The notes beneath the pieces were generated by a model, which ran no database searches, was not told the origin of the DNA, and saw nothing but the letters and a program-made list of their open reading frames with translations. Both the position numbers and the translations under genes were made by a program. From NCBI GenBank assembly GCA_963677745.1, contig OY782391.1:1-64000 (forward strand): a stretch of DNA of 64,000 nt. Reading direction: 5' to 3'. Of this stretch, positions 24,200 through 32,193 are shown piece by piece. This DNA comes from Candidatus Altimarinota bacterium. Its GTDB lineage: Bacteria > Patescibacteriota > Gracilibacteria > UBA1369. Position 1 is the first letter of the stretch; each line of letters begins with the position of its first letter.

Positions 24200-26398
24200 C
24201 TATTTTCTTTTCTTTTTTAACAAGGTCCCGATCGCCGCACTGGCGCCCAATACCAGCAGCACTTCCGGTCCTGTCTTGGTGGTGTTTGTCGGGAAAGGAC
24301 CGCTATAAGCAGCGGGCTTGAGATTATCAGGGACTTCTATCGGGGAGGTGGGGCCTTCACTCAAGGCATTTTTAATTTCCAGCATAAAAGGTATTCCGCT
24401 GACAATTTCACTCTTGGCAGTGCTTTCGTTGGCTTCGTCATCAATAGCCGCTACTGCAAAGAAATATTCTTTGCCGTTTACCAGCTCCGGTATGTACCAG
24501 GTGGTACTGGCATCTTTTGTCATAGCTACTTTATCCAGATTTTTAACATCATCTCCAAAGTAAACCTTGTAACTCTTGACCATTTTATCATCGGTTGCGG
24601 CGTCCCAGACCAGAGTAACTCTCTTATCCGAACCGTAGGCAATCAAACCCGATACCTGTGAAGGTGCACCGGCAACCGGTAGTATTTGTCCATCATCGGT
24701 TGGAGGGTTCTCGGTGTCGCTTTGTGTCGTTGTTGTCGTGGTAGTGGTATCCTGGGGAGTCACGATCGTACCTCCAGCCTCATCCACAGTAATTGTTGCT
24801 TGATCCTCATATGTTTTTTCATTTTGCATTTCATCCTGCAGCAAGATATTCATCTTATAAATACCCGGGTCGGCGGGAGCCTGCAAAGTACCTATATAAA
24901 GGGTTTGATCTTCCGGACTGACGTTTAAGGCAACAATGTCAAAATTTAATATAATCGAAGCTTGGGTCAGGTTCTTTTCACTAAATACTTTCACGTTGAT
25001 GACTGATCCTGGCTTAATCCCTGTCGAAGGATCCAGTTCCACGCTTTCCAGTAGGGGAGGCGTGGTGTCAATTTCTATATCAACGGGATCGGACGTACCG
25101 ATTACTTCCAGTGTTATCTGATCGGTATTTACAACATACAAACGGTGTTTACCGTCTTCCAAAGGCTTGGTCTGATAGGAAAACTTGCCTGATGGCCCGA
25201 CCGGGACTTCTCCGATTTTTTGGTCATTGTCAAAAATCTGGATACTCGAACCTGTTTTTGCAGACCCAGAAACGGTCATTTCAGCCTGACTGTAAGTCCC
25301 GGGAGCCGGAGCTGAAATTACCGGTTTGCTGCCGGTACCTTCTGTTTTAGTGCCGGAAGCGCTTCCCACCACAATGGTAGCTTCGCCTTTTTTAAATTTA
25401 TCCGTTAAATCGTTTACCACCAGCTTGTAGGTTCCGTCCTGGGCAAAACTTAGACCCAGGTCAAAATTGTGCTGACCCAGATCGGAAGCTAAAAATTTAT
25501 AGTTGGCAGGCAAGGTTACACCAGAACTGTTGTCTCCTTCTGCCGAAAACCTTACTGTTCCGGTATAATCCTGGACTGTTAAACTATCCTGATCAATGGC
25601 TTTTACGGTAAAAGAAACATTTTCATTCTTTTTAATGGTGTCGGGCAAACCGGATATTTCGAAACCGTTTAGCGCACCAAAATCTGCCGCATAGGCTTTA
25701 TTAATGAAATCACCGCCTGCATTAGAGATATAATTTACTCCGCTTCTGAATGACAGTGAAGTTCTCTGATCAAGAACTTTTCCTTCAGCAATGTCGATTG
25801 CCATAATAGCCGAGATACCAGCTATGGAGCTTGAAACAGAAAACTTCTGTTGACCGCTGCTATCCGTTGTATCGGTTACAGACGAAATCTTATCGGTGTT
25901 TCGTGACGAAAGTAGTTTAACCGTTCTCCCCGGAATGGGATTGGTGTATTTATCAAGCAGAGTAACAGTTATGTTGGCGTTGTCGTTTTCCATACCTACC
26001 ACGGTTTTATTGACATTTATCTCGGATAAAGCGCCGTCAAGAGCGGCCGGTATAACGTTAAAACTAGTCTTTGAGGTAGTTACTCCGTTCTCTGGCGATA
26101 CTGCCTTTACAAAATACTGACCTGAAATGCGGGTATGGTAGTCATACAATTCAATTTCCGCATTACCGTCTTCATCCGTTTGGGATGAGATGGTGACATT
26201 GACCTGATCAGGCTTATTTACTATGAAATTCACCGGCGAATCGGAAGCAAAGTTCCGGACTCTGAGATAAGCGGGTTGACCAGCCACAGTGTCTGTACCA
26301 TAGACATATGCTTCACTTTGGGCCAAAACCAATGGAGATTGGCCAAACAGCATAATTGCCATTGCTATCAGACTGAGTTTAATTTTTTTAGCAAACAT
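24200..26398 (-). CDS. Secreted multi-Ig/fibronectin-III surface protein with C-terminal TKTGP-TM-basic tail
   Basis: Signal peptide; Big_1-like domain (VTLLDKYTNPIPG); Ig-like DTTPP domain; Thr-rich linker; Fn3 (VTLVWD..Y..LVNGKEYFFAVAAID); tail TTKTGPEVLLVLGASAAIGTLLKKKRK. Confidence 0.75.
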   Translation of the reverse strand: MFAKKIKLSLIAMAIMLFGQSPLVLAQSEAYVYGTDTVAGQPAYLRVRNFASDSPVNFIVNKPDQVNVTISSQTDEDGNAEIELYDYHTRISGQYFVKAVSPENGVTTSKTSFNVIPAALDGALSEINVNKTVVGMENDNANITVTLLDKYTNPIPGRTVKLLSSRNTDKISSVTDTTDSSGQQKFSVSSSIAGISAIMAIDIAEGKVLDQRTSLSFRSGVNYISNAGGDFINKAYAADFGALNGFEISGLPDTIKKNENVSFTVKAIDQDSLTVQDYTGTVRFSAEGDNSSGVTLPANYKFLASDLGQHNFDLGLSFAQDGTYKLVVNDLTDKFKKGEATIVVGSASGTKTEGTGSKPVISAPAPGTYSQAEMTVSGSAKTGSSIQIFDNDQKIGEVPVGPSGKFSYQTKPLEDGKHRLYVVNTDQITLEVIGTSDPVDIEIDTTPPLLESVELDPSTGIKPGSVINVKVFSEKNLTQASIILNFDIVALNVSPEDQTLYIGTLQAPADPGIYKMNILLQDEMQNEKTYEDQATITVDEAGGTIVTPQDTTTTTTTTQSDTENPPTDDGQILPVAGAPSQVSGLIAYGSDKRVTLVWDAATDDKMVKSYKVYFGDDVKNLDKVAMTKDASTTWYIPELVNGKEYFFAVAAIDDEANESTAKSEIVSGIPFMLEIKNALSEGPTSPIEVPDNLKPAAYSGPFPTNTTKTGPEVLLVLGASAAIGTLLKKKRK

Positions 26399-26472
26399 GT
26401 TTTGATGTTTATTTTTATATCCCAATATTATATCATACAAAAGCTTGAAACACAATTCACCAAGCCAAATTC

Positions 26473-27243
26473 ATGGACAAATCCAGACTTAAAACCCCGT
26501 TTTTGGGCGGTTTACTATTTTTAGCCTGTTTAATAGTCGGAATAAGCGGAAGTATAAGCCATTCTATTGAGTTTCTGAAAACACTGGAGGTCTCGCCCGA
26601 TATCATCTATCTTCCGCTGATTTTGCCGTTTTTAGGACTGTTTCTGGCCTTTTCCAAGATCATTATTGGTATGAACACGCCCAATTCTTATGTACCTCTG
26701 ACAGTAGTCATTACTTCATTCTTTATCGGGCCCCTGTTAAGTATCACAACACTCATTGTTTGCCTTATTGTAGGCTATTTTATGAAGTACATCATTGTTG
26801 AATTCAAACTCCATTCCAACGTAAAAACCTCACTGATTTTATCGTTGCTTTCGATCATATTTATCCTGCTTTTGCCCTTTTATCCTTCATCTCTGGTTTT
26901 TCAGGGAATAAATTATTCTTTACTGATCTGTTACGGGATATTTTTAATTTCCCTGATAAACGAAAAATATCTTAGTTTCAAAATAACCAAATCCAATCTG
27001 ATATCCGATTTGAAGATAATTTTCAGCACAATTCTCTTTTCCTTCATTACCTACCTCATCCTGGGCGGAAAAATAGTAACGGGCAGCCAATACTTTGATT
27101 TCCCATATCTTAAAGACCTGGTGATGGGACTGCCGGAAATCGTACTGGTGGCTATATTATTGACCGCCTTGATTGGTCGATATACAGGCCTCAGACTGAC
27201 AGAACTTTGGCGCTTCAGAAAATTAATATTTAAAAACAACTGA
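26473..27243 (+). CDS. 7TM membrane protein (7TM_transglut-like)
   Basis: About 7 hydrophobic segments; C-terminal PE...IGRYTGLRLTELWRF signature; stop overlaps the next ATG (TGATG). Confidence 0.75.
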   Translation: MDKSRLKTPFLGGLLFLACLIVGISGSISHSIEFLKTLEVSPDIIYLPLILPFLGLFLAFSKIIIGMNTPNSYVPLTVVITSFFIGPLLSITTLIVCLIVGYFMKYIIVEFKLHSNVKTSLILSLLSIIFILLLPFYPSSLVFQGINYSLLICYGIFLISLINEKYLSFKITKSNLISDLKIIFSTILFSFITYLILGGKIVTGSQYFDFPYLKDLVMGLPEIVLVAILLTALIGRYTGLRLTELWRFRKLIFKNN

Positions 27244-29612
27244 TGTCCCTAATTAATCGGGGAATATTGGGGATAAACGCCAGAAATCTCCTCTATATCT
27301 CACCATTTAATAAAGAAAAAGGCATTGAGATTGCCGATGACAAGATTAAGACCAAGGCCTTCCTTTCAGCCAGGGGCATTCCTGTGCCAAAATTGCTGGG
27401 AGTAATTTCGTCCAGAGTAGAACTTTCCAGATTTCATTTTGGGAAACTTGGCAGTGAATTTGTTCTGAAGCCGAATCTGGGTTTCGGAGGACAGGGGATA
27501 ATCCCAATCGTTAGCAAAAAACATGATTATTTTCTGGATTTTAAAAACAACCAGTATTCACGCGAAGATCTTTCCGAACACATCAGAAACATTCTTAACG
27601 GCAACTTTTCTGTGACGGATAAGCCTGATAAAGCCTTTTTTGAAAAATTGATAATTACCGATGAAATCCTGGGCAAATATTCCTTTGGAGGACTTCCCGA
27701 TATCAGAATAATTGTCCATAATTTAGTGCCTGTCATGGCCATGCTCAGACTCCCCAATAAATTTTCCGAAGGGAAAGCCAATCTTCATCAGGGTGCTTAC
27801 GGAGCCGGTATAGATCTGGCCAAAGGAGAAGTCACCTTCCTGACCCATAATGGGAAAATTATTAAAGAAATCCCGGAAAAAGGCCCACTCAAAGGCCTTA
27901 AAATTCCTTTTTGGGACGATATTCTTAGGATTGCCTGTCAGTCCCAACTGGCCAGTAATCTTGGTTATATGGGGGCCGACATTGCCATCGACAAACATCA
28001 CGGTCCGGTCCTGCTGGAAATCAATGCCAGAGCGGGACTTGGTATCCAGATAGCCAATCTGACACCCCTTCGTAAAAGACTGGAGAAAATCGAGGGTGTA
28101 GATGTCAAAACCATTGAAAAAGGGATCAGGCTGGCCAAAGATATGTTTGGATATTCCATTGAAAAAAACATCAAATCCATCTCCGGCAAAAAAGTGCTGG
28201 GGATCTATGAAAATGTTGAGATACTTCAGCCACACAACCCCTGCACCGGGATTGCCTTTATGAACACTTCCAGAAAAAAAAGCTATATAGGCATTGATCT
28301 GGCCAAAAATCTTGGCTTAATCACCTCCAAAAAGCAAAAAGACCTGGAAAAACTGAAATTTAAACTTAAATTCAAGATCGGTGACAGAAAAATCACTTCC
28401 ATTGTTAAAATAGACAAATATCTCAAAAAAAAGTATCAGGTTGTTTTTGGTAACCGCGACTTGGGCGGACATTTTTTGATAGACACCTCGATTAACAATT
28501 TAATTTCAGAACAAAGAAAAGGGGAGACAAATAGAATTTTTATCACCAATTATGACCCGCTGGAAACCGATCGTCAGCTTTGCAGAATTATCAGCCAGCT
28601 AAAATTTCTAAGCTATTTTAGGCCGCTTAATTTTAACGAGGAATCACATCGTTTTATTTCAGACCGAAGCTATAATCCTCAGTTCGAATATAAGGAGGCT
28701 GGTCTCGATTTTTCACAATTAAACAAGGAACTTTCCCGGATCAAATACGATGATACCGAACTGGGCAGGCTTTTTCACAAAAAAATAATTGAATTGGGCA
28801 GTTTTTTTGAACTGATCAAAGCCCGGGAAAGCGCCGATTTTACTGAATTATCCAAACAAATCTTCGGCAGTCCAAGTGAAGAAGATCTACAAACCATTCG
28901 TGAAACCCGACCGGAAATAGCAGTCTCCCCCAAAAAACAAAAAATAACTTCCCAGGAGCTGAAGGAAATTTTTGAGCAAAAACTCTCTGAGTATGGCTTG
29001 AATGACTGGCGGGTCATTCTTAAAAAACATCTTCTGACGAAGTGCGTGGTAAACCGCAATAAAAGAATAATTATAAAAAATCATTCCAGTTTCAATTTGG
29101 CTCGCGTGGAAGAACTTGTTATCCATGAAATCGATACACACCTGCTAACCAGTGAGAATGGCAGTAGACAGAAATATCAGCTCTTTAATCTCGGATTCAG
29201 TAATTATCTGGAAACGCAGGAAGGCCTGGCGCTTTACAACGTCATCCATTTTGGCAACAAACCGGACGAAGAGAAATATAAAAACATACTTACAGAAGCC
29301 ATTTCCCTAGCCCAAAAAATGTCTTTGTCCGAGCTTTACAGGTTGATTAAATCCAAAAAAATAAGTGACAGGAGCGCGCTTGACATCTGTTTCAGGGTAA
29401 AACGGGGGATCGGGGACACCTCTCTTCCCGGGGCCTTTACCAAGGATTACTGTTATTTTAGCGGCTTGAAAAAAATTGAAACCTTTCTTAATGAAAGCGG
29501 CAACCTGTCAGATCTATATTTTGGCAAATACAGTCTTGATGACCTGCCCCAAATCAAGAACATCAGCTCTTTTAAAACGCCGCCGCTTTTACCCGGCTGG
29601 CTCAAACCATAA
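27243..29612 (+). CDS. Fusion protein: alpha-L-glutamate-ligase-like ATP-grasp + degenerate retropepsin-like domain + DUF1704/QEGLA metallopeptidase
   Basis: GILGINARN..DDKIKTK, GLPDIRIIV, MAMLRLP..GKANLHQG, LLEINARAGLGIQIAN; middle AFMNTS..LAKNLG..YQVVFGNRDL..FLID; C-terminal HEIDTH, TQEGLA, RVKRG..FTKDYCYFSG. Confidence 0.8.
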   Translation: MSLINRGILGINARNLLYISPFNKEKGIEIADDKIKTKAFLSARGIPVPKLLGVISSRVELSRFHFGKLGSEFVLKPNLGFGGQGIIPIVSKKHDYFLDFKNNQYSREDLSEHIRNILNGNFSVTDKPDKAFFEKLIITDEILGKYSFGGLPDIRIIVHNLVPVMAMLRLPNKFSEGKANLHQGAYGAGIDLAKGEVTFLTHNGKIIKEIPEKGPLKGLKIPFWDDILRIACQSQLASNLGYMGADIAIDKHHGPVLLEINARAGLGIQIANLTPLRKRLEKIEGVDVKTIEKGIRLAKDMFGYSIEKNIKSISGKKVLGIYENVEILQPHNPCTGIAFMNTSRKKSYIGIDLAKNLGLITSKKQKDLEKLKFKLKFKIGDRKITSIVKIDKYLKKKYQVVFGNRDLGGHFLIDTSINNLISEQRKGETNRIFITNYDPLETDRQLCRIISQLKFLSYFRPLNFNEESHRFISDRSYNPQFEYKEAGLDFSQLNKELSRIKYDDTELGRLFHKKIIELGSFFELIKARESADFTELSKQIFGSPSEEDLQTIRETRPEIAVSPKKQKITSQELKEIFEQKLSEYGLNDWRVILKKHLLTKCVVNRNKRIIIKNHSSFNLARVEELVIHEIDTHLLTSENGSRQKYQLFNLGFSNYLETQEGLALYNVIHFGNKPDEEKYKNILTEAISLAQKMSLSELYRLIKSKKISDRSALDICFRVKRGIGDTSLPGAFTKDYCYFSGLKKIETFLNESGNLSDLYFGKYSLDDLPQIKNISSFKTPPLLPGWLKP

Positions 29613-30662: not shown

Positions 30663-31838
30663 TCAAATCTTTTGTTCTGTTCCTTCAGCAATAGCAGCAG
30701 TCCATTTTTCCTGTTTCTGGTCTATCATTGCCTTTCCCGCTGTTCCATCTGCCAGTTTCTTAACGACTACCAGTGTCACATCGTCATCCTGAACATGCTC
30801 CTCCACAAATGTCGAAAAGTCTTTTGCTATATTCTGGATTATGGTAAAAGCATCGTTATTTCCTGCATACAAAGCTACCAGTTCTTTCAGACGGTTTAAT
30901 CCGAACATCTCTCCTTTCATATTCCGGGCCTCGGTAATACCGTCCGTATAAAGTACTATCACATCATCCGTTTCCATTGGGAGCTCCTTTTCCTTAATAA
31001 TCTTGCTGTTATCGGCTACCATGCCCAACGCAATCCCTCCACTGGGAAAGACGTCAATTGTATTGGTTTTAGCTCTGAATACCAGAACATGTTCATGACC
31101 GCACCCCACGTAGGTCATTTTTTTGGACATACCGTCCCATTTCAACATCAACATGCTCATAAACATATTTGACCTGATCCTGGTCTTTAAGCGCCTGTTG
31201 GTTTGCACTACTATGTCATATGAAGTCTCGTAGATCTCAGCGTAAGCGTTAATGAGGGTATTGACCATTGTCATAACAATAGCCGCAGGAATACCATGAC
31301 CGGTTACATCGCCGATGTAAAAATAGGTGGAATTACGAACTTTGATAAAATCCAGATTATCCCCGCCCAGTTCCTCAGCAGATCTGTTTTTTACTGCAAT
31401 ATCAAAATCTTCAATGGTGGGAGCTTTGATCGGAATCAATTCTTTTTGGAGTTGACCGGCAACAACCAGTTCACCGGTTAATTTTTTGCTTTGTTCCAAC
31501 TGATCGGTGACTCTTTCCAGACTGGAGGTAACTTCATTAAAAAAATGCGCGAACACACCTATCTCGTCTGTCCGTTTTGTAAAGATTTTCTTATATCTTC
31601 TGTCGGTAAGAACCGCTTTTATCTGATCCAAAACCAACTTCATCGGTCTGCCAAAATCCCTATAATAAATTATCTCAGCCAAAAACAGCAAAGCAACTCC
31701 TATCACGGCCAATTCCCTCAGAGAAAAAGACTCTATTTTAAAGAAATATACATAACCTGCCACCAAAGCAGTTAAAATCACCACCCCAAGCAGCAGATCT
31801 ATATATATCTTTTTTGTGAGAGCGCCTTTAATTAGCAT
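30663..31838 (-). CDS. Membrane HAMP + SpoIIE/RsbU-type PP2C phosphatase
   Basis: 2 TM helices, HAMP (RTDEIGVFAHFFN), LGGD, IGDVTGHG, GHE, LYTDGITEA, DDVTLVV. Confidence 0.9.
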   Translation of the reverse strand: MLIKGALTKKIYIDLLLGVVILTALVAGYVYFFKIESFSLRELAVIGVALLFLAEIIYYRDFGRPMKLVLDQIKAVLTDRRYKKIFTKRTDEIGVFAHFFNEVTSSLERVTDQLEQSKKLTGELVVAGQLQKELIPIKAPTIEDFDIAVKNRSAEELGGDNLDFIKVRNSTYFYIGDVTGHGIPAAIVMTMVNTLINAYAEIYETSYDIVVQTNRRLKTRIRSNMFMSMLMLKWDGMSKKMTYVGCGHEHVLVFRAKTNTIDVFPSGGIALGMVADNSKIIKEKELPMETDDVIVLYTDGITEARNMKGEMFGLNRLKELVALYAGNNDAFTIIQNIAKDFSTFVEEHVQDDDVTLVVVKKLADGTAGKAMIDQKQEKWTAAIAEGTEQKI

Positions 31839-32193
31839 TTGCTAGCCCTTTTACAAATTCATCCAAAGTTTCATAATAAGCAACCGTCTCAAACAGTCCA
31901 ATTACCTGCAAAACGTCAATTACATTCTTTTTGGCATGTACAATCACCAGCTTCTTATCCTTCGCAGTAAGCTTCTCATTTATTTGCATTAAAACCCCGA
32001 TACTTTCACTGTTTATATATTCAAGTTCAGTAAAATCAAAAACCAGATGGGGCTTATCCACAGTGTCGATAATTTCCGCAATTTCCTTCCTTTTTTCTGT
32101 CAGTCCGTATGAATCCAGGTTCCCGACGAACTCTACAACCCAGTATTTTTCATTATCTTTCTTTATCTTTATTTCCAATGGAGTGTCTAACAT
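31828..32193 (-). CDS. STAS anti-sigma factor antagonist (RsbV/SpoIIAA-like)
   Basis: GNLDSY, LVFDFTELEYINSESIGVL, VIDVLQVIGL. Confidence 0.85.
   Translation of the reverse strand: MLDTPLEIKIKKDNEKYWVVEFVGNLDSYGLTEKRKEIAEIIDTVDKPHLVFDFTELEYINSESIGVLMQINEKLTAKDKKLVIVHAKKNVIDVLQVIGLFETVAYYETLDEFVKGLANAN

Follow-up and report, generated by a model that had tools for sequence, protein, structure and literature searches.

The first 64,000 nucleotides of contig OY782391.1 (forward strand, positions 1 to 64,000; hereafter the window), from Candidatus Altimarinota bacterium, carry a two-gene unit at positions 26,473 to 29,612. It encodes a predicted seven-transmembrane (7TM) protein and, directly behind it, an enzyme in which an ATP-grasp ligase, a retropepsin-fold domain and a MATCAP-type metallopeptidase follow one another in a single chain. 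We consider the chances about even that this unit is a compacted system of the Rlo type with an added carboxypeptidase, whose enzyme would extend a free C-terminus and trim the same end. The homologies of the domains, the intact motifs of the two outer domains, the dead site of the retropepsin, the pairing with the 7TM protein and the presence of ligase and MATCAP-like domain in the same genomes are shown by the sequence comparisons described below. The proposed mechanism, in which one chain is both writer and eraser, is plausible by analogy, because relatives of the MATCAP-like domain are deglutamylases.

The reference for this comparison is the RloABC system of Pseudomonas aeruginosa (Lormand et al. 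2025, PMC11957051, referred to throughout as far as the available part of that report goes). RloA is described there as a secreted retropepsin that cuts runs of at least 8 Glu and RloC as a cytoplasmic ATP-grasp protein. The triple rloA mutant is rescued when rloB or rloC is deleted, and the authors raise the possibility of free polyglutamate and of osmolyte homeostasis; from the Rlo phenotypes (cell shape, beta-lactam sensitivity) they propose a link to peptidoglycan. According to the same report, RimK adds Glu to the C-terminus of RpsF and makes poly-alpha-Glu, and both RimB and RloA cut polyGlu. The three modules of RloABC, namely a 7TM_transglut-type RloB, a TIGR02291-type RloC and a PF05618-type RloA, are the same as those found in the window. 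The initial annotation of this DNA, made by a model from the letters and their open reading frames (ORFs), had connected the locus with predicted operons of a 7TM protein, an ATP-grasp enzyme and an aspartyl protease; the connection was right, and such operons are now characterised as RloABC (PMC11957051).

The gene of the RloB-like multi-pass membrane protein (256 aa, a short form without ectodomain) occupies 26473..27243 (+) and the three-domain fusion gene (789 aa) 27243..29612 (+). The two ORFs share one base at a TGATG stop/start overlap (27241..27245, +; stop TGA 27241-27243, ATG 27243-27245), which points to translational coupling; lengths, positions and overlap agree with what had been read initially. 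Since the genes on both sides of the pair lie on the opposite strand, the two-gene unit is self-contained. Its G+C content (0.40-0.41) is the same as that of the surroundings. The fusion protein has no hydrophobic segment (maximum 19-residue hydropathy 1.31) and is therefore probably cytoplasmic.

The RloC/RimK-type ATP-grasp ligase domain comprises residues 1-300 of the fusion protein (27243..28142, +). PF14397 ATPgrasp_ST matches residues 14-284 with E 7.7e-62 (209.4 bits, cut-off 31.4; positions 2-277 of the 278 in the model), TIGR02291 'alpha-L-glutamate ligase-like' matches with E 1.9e-79 (266.9 bits, below the equivalog cut-off of 314.2) and TIGR00768 rimK_fam with E 4.8e-13 (49.1 bits, far under the cut-off of 143.4). 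By these scores the domain is a relative of the TIGR02291 family and not an equivalog. It is 41.4% identical (E 9e-61) to the ATP-grasp protein of an Aeromonas caviae operon with the RloA-RloB-RloC layout, and Pfam, searched to E 1, gave no match to a TTL model. The domain is also the best-conserved part of the protein, with a mean identity of 59.5% to the window protein over 80 loci (L001-L080), which are the best 80 of 394 confirmed relatives among 487 candidate stretches from species-representative genomes. The five motifs pointed out initially (GINARN, DDKIKTK, GLPDIR, KANLHQG and LEINAR) are all present, and their core residues are invariant in an alignment of 29 sequences: G10, N12, A13 and R14; D32, K34, K36 and K38; G150, L151, D153, I154 and R155; N180, L181, H182 and G184; E259, I260, N261, A262 and R263. 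The family-invariant residues K76, D246, E259 and N261 are all present in the window protein; by analogy with known ATP-grasp enzymes, they may bind nucleotide and metal.

At the other end of the chain, residues 445-789 (28575..29609, +) form a MATCAP/DUF1704 (QEGLA-motif) metallopeptidase domain, an identity already proposed from the letters and now backed by family models and a solved relative. PF08014 MATCAP (formerly DUF1704) matches residues 473-774 with E 4.7e-47 (161.2 bits, cut-off 27), TIGR02421 'QEGLA motif protein' matches with E 2.2e-51 (175.2 bits, below the equivalog cut-off of 338.65), and the human MATCAP/KIAA0895L chains 7z5g and 7z5h match with E 4.2e-15 and with the motifs in register. 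The metal-binding/catalytic motif HEIDTH (residues 628-633; 29124..29141, +) aligns with HEIGTH of human MATCAP, the putative third metal ligand QEGLA (residues 659-663; 29217..29231, +) with its EEGLA, and KRG..DTSLPGAFTKD with its KRG..DTSLPGCFSKD. HEIDTH and QEGLA had been called intact, and this is confirmed: HExxxH, QEGxA and KRG are each kept in 120 of 120 homologs (counts of 120 refer to the best 120 of 976 database matches), and HExxTH in all 80 loci. At the level of its motifs, the metallopeptidase domain is intact. In the available part of a report on the MATCAP family (PMC10499314), the EEG motif is given as a putative third metal-binding site, TMCP1 and TMCP2 are metallocarboxypeptidases that also shorten polyglutamate chains, and MATCAP/TMCP enzymes produce defined truncated tubulin tails.

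Between the two outer domains lies a predicted retropepsin fold (residues ~310-416; 28170..28490, +), followed by a poorly conserved linker (residues 417-444; 28491..28574, +). The sequence of the window itself gives little hint of the fold: residues 291-480 alone retrieved from Pfam only a chance-level match to Linker_histone (E 0.036), and no aspartyl-protease model at E up to 10. When 80 family members were compared with Pfam singly, 19 matched Asp_protease_2 (PF13650) and gag-asp_proteas (PF13975) at E up to 1, a DDI1-type model was found in 3 and PF05618 in 2. The middle-domain profile reached only four DDI1 retropepsin chains in the PDB, all weakly (E 0.72-1). An AlphaFold2 model of residues 300-445, built from an 80-sequence alignment, had a predicted local distance difference test (pLDDT) value of 81.7, with the lowest values (54-64) over residues ~420-439, that is, in the linker. 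When the model was compared with representative structures by VIA-align, the best match was Lpg0085 (2pma; Z 13.2, root-mean-square deviation 2.3, 93 residues aligned), followed by RloA2 (9g59; Z 12.1) and Ddi1 (7d66; Z 10.0), and the top match in Foldseek was RloA 9g58 (E 4.1e-5). When the alignment of the middle domain was compared by hhalign with one RloA-like protein from Aeromonas, N341 fell opposite the Asp of DTG, but the match was not significant (probability 1.2%, E 0.045), so that the assignment rests mainly on the fold. Taken together, the models indicate that the middle domain is a retropepsin fold nearest to the PF05618/RloA-type peptidases. The initial proposal of a retropepsin-like domain is thus borne out by the predicted fold and by the D-T-G of the relatives, and not by the sequence of the window itself.

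The triplet N-T-S at residues 341-343 (28263..28271, +) replaces the catalytic D-T/S-G. The Asn codon AAC at nucleotide 28263 was read as in the initial annotation, and the triplet aligns with D-T-G or D-S-G of many relatives, as AKIDTGEERSSID illustrates. Of the 120 homologs, 42 retain D-[TS]-G, as do 18 of the 80 loci, and the Asp is lost in 48 of the 120. An engineered RloA D48N is catalytically inactive (PMC11957051). With Asn for Asp, the catalytic site of the middle domain is predicted to be dead. The dead domain nevertheless appears to be kept under constraint, because its mean identity to the window protein over the 80 loci (35.5%) is like that of the MATCAP domain (37.3%) and unlike that of the linker (16.3%). 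In the window it is unusually basic, with a net charge of +14 over 107 residues, against a median of -1 in the family and of -5.5 among members that keep D[TS]G. A general role of the dead domain as a basic dock for acidic tails was considered and rejected on account of the family median. A separate PF05618 gene was not found in the host genome.

The membrane partner is recognised by PF14402 7TM_transglut with E 1.3e-5 (25.3 bits, just above the cut-off of 25), and its relatives score 38.6-108 bits with the same model; NF052267 RloB gives the window protein 8.2 bits against a cut-off of 900. Its AlphaFold2 model is all-helical (pLDDT 88) and hydrophobic segments are present. The protein, at 256 aa, has no N-terminal inactive transglutaminase ectodomain; in the four long-form relatives tested, a PKD domain was recognised and no transglutaminase model matched at E up to 0.01. 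Loci of other families of the phylum in which the parts are split (L089, L092, L096, L097) likewise encode short 7TM proteins of 223-235 aa that lack an ectodomain, so the absence of an ectodomain is not unique to the clade of the window. The conserved C-terminal motif GRYTGLRLTELWRF (residues 235-248; 27175..27216, +) is probably cytoplasmic, and in an alignment of 50 sequences G239, L240, E244 and F248 are invariant, and R241, R247 and R249 nearly so. The initial annotation had the protein ending in this motif; the motif is real, but it stops 8 residues short of the true C-terminus, ...RFRKLIFKNN.

Several observations tie the 7TM protein to the ligase. Directly in front of the fusion gene, 77 of the 80 loci have a homolog of the 7TM gene, and the other three have less than 65 nt of upstream DNA. 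The motif G.[YW].G.[RK]L.E..RF is also found in Legionella and Aeromonas RloB-like proteins, and it stands directly before the ATP-grasp domain in a 7TM-ATP-grasp fusion of Halobacterium. The latter, on plasmid CP007061.1 of Halobacterium sp. DL1 (L087:4164-5918), is one unannotated ORF of 584 aa that consists of a 7TM_transglut-like module and an RloC-like ATP-grasp domain; by its sequence it is an archaeal Rosetta-stone fusion which links 7TM protein and ligase physically. Apparent paralogs of the 7TM protein in the host genome were rejected, since the profile included the long-form PKD ectodomain and the matches to other large proteins were PKD repeats.

The fusion itself is common to a whole family. 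All of the best 120 homologs are 771-813 aa long and have both Pfam domains, and in 79 of the 80 loci the fusion runs in one open frame of 780-884 residues from stop to stop. At the remaining locus (L064:3644-6170) it is split into frames of 61 and 785 aa, maybe by a frameshift or a sequencing error near the 5' end. Four sequencing runs (at most four samples from two studies, one possibly the source) each contain 3301 bases of the region on one contig with 0 differences; no RNA run is listed among those that contain the region. The initial annotation had suggested both a survey of the fusion among relatives and a look at the reads for an assembly artefact; such an artefact is rejected by the 80 loci, the 120 homologs and the four unbroken runs together. 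The single-chain architecture, put forward there as new, stands, and its newness has to be tempered because the fusion is common in public genomes of the lineage, where the proteins already carry automatic names. What is new is the three-domain architecture, the systematic tie to a 7TM protein, the pattern of retropepsin decay and the clade with Glu-tailed partners; the parts are known families. None of these four was found in the literature searched, although the survey in Figure S2 of the Rlo preprint could bear on priority. A survey by Iyer et al. in 2009 may, reportedly, have anticipated part of the system.

The wider distribution was examined in a sample of 401 genomes of the phylum to which the window belongs. 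An RloC-like ligase was found in 127 of them and a MATCAP-like domain in 62, and 61 of these 62 also have the ligase, the exception (G223) being the weakest match. In 23 of the 62 the MATCAP-like match lies in a frame of at least 700 aa; the rest are standalone (mostly frames of ~370-450 aa) or shorter pieces. Ten standalone loci were examined. In three (L088, L090 and L095) the MATCAP gene lies directly behind a gene for ATP-grasp plus retropepsin; in L088 and L090 the order is 7TM, ATP-grasp+retropepsin, MATCAP, as separate overlapping genes, and L095 is alike without its 5' end. In four others, the ligase gene is 0.8-4.3 kb away. These split systems have the same parts in the same order as the window, with MATCAP up to 4 kb off or elsewhere in the genome, and 6 of 7 keep DTG; the window represents the fully fused form without the Asp. 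The split loci and the DTG pattern lead to the view that the common core in the phylum is the 7TM protein with an ATP-grasp-retropepsin protein, and that MATCAP is an add-on which became fused in some lineages. Where MATCAP is fused, the retropepsin active site tends to decay.

In a tree of the family, the window and five short-form loci are set apart from 72 long-form rows with a Shimodaira-Hasegawa-like approximate likelihood ratio test (SH-aLRT) value of 97; L059, L064, L080 and the Legionella outgroup were left out of this tree because of a mismatch in the N-terminal pattern. The root, and with it the polarity of the reduced form, is unreliable, since the outgroup branch is 5.8 long. The 7TM proteins of the window and its five nearest loci (L001, L002, L003, L006, L020) are 248-257 aa long, where long-form proteins with their PKD ectodomain reach about 500-550 aa, and the five resemble the window in having KLIFKNN-like basic tails and in the loss of the Asp. 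The closest relatives of the locus are labelled Peribacteria, Peregrinibacteria, Gracilibacteria or 'Patescibacteria group'. Two contigs of metagenome-assembled genomes labelled Nitrospirota (L007, L011) carry a Peregrinibacteria-type locus (47-48% identity, long-form 7TM protein, EE tail) and may be mis-binned.

From these data a mechanism can be proposed. The soluble enzyme would dock on the cytoplasmic face of the 7TM protein. The ATP-grasp domain would lengthen the free C-terminus of a protein or peptide by amino acids, of which alpha-linked glutamate is the most likely by the example of RimK, and the MATCAP-like domain would remove residues singly from the same end, so that the opposed ligase and carboxypeptidase would set the length of an acidic tail. 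The dead retropepsin, whose counterparts in RimB and RloA are polyGlu endoproteases, would have lost that job and may now serve as a scaffold or a substrate-binding module. Comparative support for a writer and eraser comes from the tie between MATCAP and a ligase in three settings, which are the fused form, the adjacent genes of the split operons and, with a different ATP-grasp enzyme, gene clusters of Proteobacteria. Aromatic residues had been named besides Glu as possible additions, and nothing in the evidence points to them.

A candidate acceptor is found in the sister clade. The 7TM proteins of 71 of the 77 loci share a conserved C-terminal tail of the form ...RFR-E-[VI]-x-[RK]-[HY]-x-E-E, for example ...RFREVLRHIEE in L014:4467-5996; the terminal Glu number 2 in 40 of the 77 loci, 3 in 28 and 4 in 3. 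The tail is absent from the 7TM proteins of the window's clade and of L073, as well as from the split systems and from proteobacterial RloB-like proteins. Ribosomal protein S6 of E. coli ends in Glu-Glu and is extended there by RimK. The Glu-tailed 7TM protein recalls this end, and the Glu-Glu(-Glu) C-terminus of a membrane protein would be the natural candidate for glutamylation in the sister clade. The 7TM tail as a target, as proposed initially, is accordingly a strong candidate for that clade and fails for the window's own protein. A more specific picture, which we regard as rather unlikely, is that a receptor-like 7TM protein, mostly with a PKD ectodomain and a Glu tail, would have its cytoplasmic tail lengthened and shortened glutamate by glutamate by one docked enzyme that is writer and eraser at once.

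Other known systems help to place the window. Legionella and Aeromonas have RloABC-type operons with the same gene neighbours and with the same RF motif at the C-terminus of RloB. In contrast to RloABC, the retropepsin of the window follows the ligase in the same chain, lacks a signal peptide and carries Asn for Asp, as RloA D48N does; the 7TM protein is without the inactive-transglutaminase ectodomain, in place of which the long-form relatives carry PKD; and a MATCAP-like metallopeptidase is fused to the enzyme, which the available part of the report does not list for the three-gene rlo operon (PMC11957051). The host also differs, being a small-genome organism of the Patescibacteria type. The RimK-RimB pair likewise joins a cytoplasmic ATP-grasp enzyme with a cytoplasmic retropepsin that trims the polyglutamate of the ligase (PMC11957051, available part), but it has no membrane partner and its target is S6.

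The tubulin cycle of MATCAP/TMCP1 and TMCP2 (KIAA0895L and KIAA0895) against TTL/TTLL shares a homologous eraser with the window, with HExxxH, xEGLA and KRG..DTSLPG.F.KD in register. It also shares the logic by which an ATP-grasp-type writer is opposed by a MATCAP-type eraser that trims acidic C-terminal tails (PMC10499314, available part). The window ligase lies outside the TTL family, tubulin is absent, and a single chain holds both writer and eraser; the resemblance is therefore an analogy, with homology of the eraser only. In Proteobacteria the same peptidase family recurrently stands beside an ATP-grasp gene: on pSymB of Sinorhizobium meliloti (L081:4406-8207) FGase, QEGLA and 'glutathione synthase' genes lie together, and in Photobacterium sp. 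DA100 (L083:4110-7104) a GshB-like gene overlaps a gene for a 662-aa fusion of FGase and MATCAP. These clusters differ from the window in having a GshB-like ligase (PF02955/PF02951) and an N-formylglutamate-amidohydrolase-like domain, and neither a 7TM gene nor a retropepsin. One MATCAP-like locus of Pseudoalteromonas has no ligase neighbour. In Photobacterium damselae, low salinity induces a standalone QEGLA gene together with the GshB-like gene next to it, according to the available part of PMC10308900.

A number of results weigh against the proposed writer and eraser. Both the amino acid added and the target are conjectural, and the window's own 7TM protein, with its end ...RFRKLIFKNN, offers no Glu tail. 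S6, which had been suggested as a target, ends in ...KPKEQA in the host and not in Glu-Glu. Only 8 of 1146 host ORFs end in EE, about the level of chance, and among these 1146 none ends in at least 3 Glu and none has an internal Glu run of at least 6; the EE-ending ORFs (S3, S1, RpoA, a beta-CASP RNase, PrsW, a DHH protein, DUF1003 and T5orf172) were therefore rejected as acceptors. Both NCBIfam matches of the fusion protein, TIGR02291 and TIGR02421, are under their equivalog cut-offs, so that specificity may differ from that of the proteobacterial families. A phmmer search with the ATP-grasp domain gave no PDB match at E <=0.001, and the full-length profile reached only MATCAP chains; a solved relative of the ATP-grasp domain is thus not detectable by sequence. 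In the phylum sample, 66 of the 127 ligase-positive genomes are without a MATCAP-like match, which makes the carboxypeptidase an optional add-on, and in 3 of the 10 standalone MATCAP loci no ligase lies within ~7 kb, the ligase being elsewhere in the genome. The counts overstate independence, the genomes being related. Instead of editing protein tails, the GshB-like/FGase/QEGLA clusters of Proteobacteria could be pathways for small peptides. Lastly, complex prediction lends weak support to docking of the enzyme on the 7TM protein. The predicted pair scored 0.60, the best of three controls 0.00, and between runs at least 73% of contacts agree with a partner pLDDT of at least 70. In calibration, 58 of 80 solved complexes and 2 of 110 mismatched pairs came up to this mark, and scores of <=0.60 were obtained by only 7 of those 80 solved complexes together with both mismatches that passed.

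The main alternative, possible though on the improbable side, is that a homopeptide, whether oligo- or poly-glutamate or another, is made by the ligase in free form, that the 7TM protein exports or anchors it, and that the MATCAP-like domain limits its length or recycles it in the service of osmotic or envelope-stress homeostasis. RimK is known to synthesise free poly-alpha-glutamate also, the Rlo authors themselves bring up free polyglutamate and osmolyte homeostasis, and, because deletion of rloB or rloC rescues the loss of periplasmic RloA, the product of RloBC seems to reach the periplasm (PMC11957051, available part). That no Glu-tailed acceptor stands out among the host ORFs, and that the QEGLA and GshB-like genes of P. 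damselae respond to low salinity (PMC10308900, in its available part), fit this explanation as well. Nevertheless, the best hit in a fold search with the 7TM protein had Z 8.9 (helices of ABC transporters and of Rnf/Nqr), under the helical-bundle noise of ~13, so that no transporter match was obtained; the EE(E)(E) end that 71 of 77 relatives encode on the 7TM protein reads more easily as an acceptor; and a cytoplasmic exopeptidase fused to a synthase would degrade the export product inside the cell. The two outer domains may instead act in sequence, the MATCAP-like domain trimming the C-terminus of a precursor and exposing an acceptor which the ATP-grasp domain then extends or ligates. We think this improbable. 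MATCAP/TMCP enzymes do make defined truncated tubulin tails (PMC10499314, available part), the tail KLIFKNN in the window's clade is not an obvious Glu acceptor as encoded, and a fusion with fixed domain order suits a processing line as well as a cycle. But half of the ligase systems in the phylum sample operate without a MATCAP-like gene, nothing in the data indicates a precursor, and in the Rim/Rlo systems the peptidase removes what the ligase has added (PMC11957051, in the part available).

There is a similarly slim chance that the ATP-grasp domain is an amidoligase for small molecules or the envelope, with the peptidase acting on a small peptide metabolite or on a cell-wall peptide. PF14397 is named 'sugar-transfer associated' in Pfam, in Proteobacteria QEGLA genes are grouped with ligases like glutathione synthetase and with hydrolases like N-formylglutamate amidohydrolase, a setting that points to small-molecule chemistry, and the Rlo phenotypes led to the proposed peptidoglycan link (PMC11957051, available part). 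Against it, the two-gene unit, flanked as it is by genes on the other strand, contains no sugar-transfer or cell-wall gene, and RimK as well as both peptidase families act on C-termini of peptides or proteins (PMC11957051 and PMC10499314, in their available parts). That the fusion is an artefact of assembly or annotation, or a decaying gene, has a negligible probability: the loss of the catalytic Asp in the middle domain is what speaks for decay, and it stands against one open frame in 79 of 80 loci, the same architecture in the best 120 homologs, four runs with 0 differences and intact catalytic motifs throughout the outer domains.

The host genome is a single contig of 1,335,835 bp with a completeness of 97.9%, of which the window is the first 64 kb. 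Promoter-like sites (12, against 8.4 +/- 2.7 in shuffled sequence) and terminator-like sites (3, against 4.3 +/- 2.3) are not in excess. The divergent neighbour at 24200-26455 (-) encodes 751 aa and looks by eye like a surface protein; part of it is rich in Thr, and near the C-terminus a hydrophobic segment precedes KKKRK. At 30663-32193 (-), two overlapping ORFs of 391 and 121 aa resemble, by eye, a phosphatase with a membrane anchor and its small STAS-like partner. Elsewhere in the host genome, beyond the window, an ORF of 644 aa at G000:C1:1034621-1036555 (-) matches the MATCAP-domain profile weakly (E 6e-7) and belongs to no Pfam family at E <=0.001.

To our knowledge, no biochemical function has been shown for a bacterial DUF1704/QEGLA protein. 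The fusion is a Rosetta stone for these proteins as well as for the product of RloB and RloC: the MATCAP-type domain is tied physically to an Rlo/RimK-type ligase and its 7TM partner, which predicts that the product of the ligase has a free C-terminus and is trimmed there. If this prediction fails, the locus is still a well-defined reduced system of the Rlo type in a very small genome. If the writer and eraser are as proposed, they would constitute a new reversible protein modification in bacteria, the QEGLA genes of Proteobacteria would be explained, and the writer/eraser logic of the tubulin code would be suggested to have bacterial roots. Should the 7TM tail be the substrate, it would work as a rheostat or bacterial 'tail code', comparable with the glutamylation of tubulin or the methylation of chemoreceptors. 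The copy in the window would then be a reduced derivative, or an early form, acting on another acceptor, and an ATP-grasp tail ligase would have been paired with a MATCAP-type carboxypeptidase in bacteria before eukaryotes used such a pair on tubulin.

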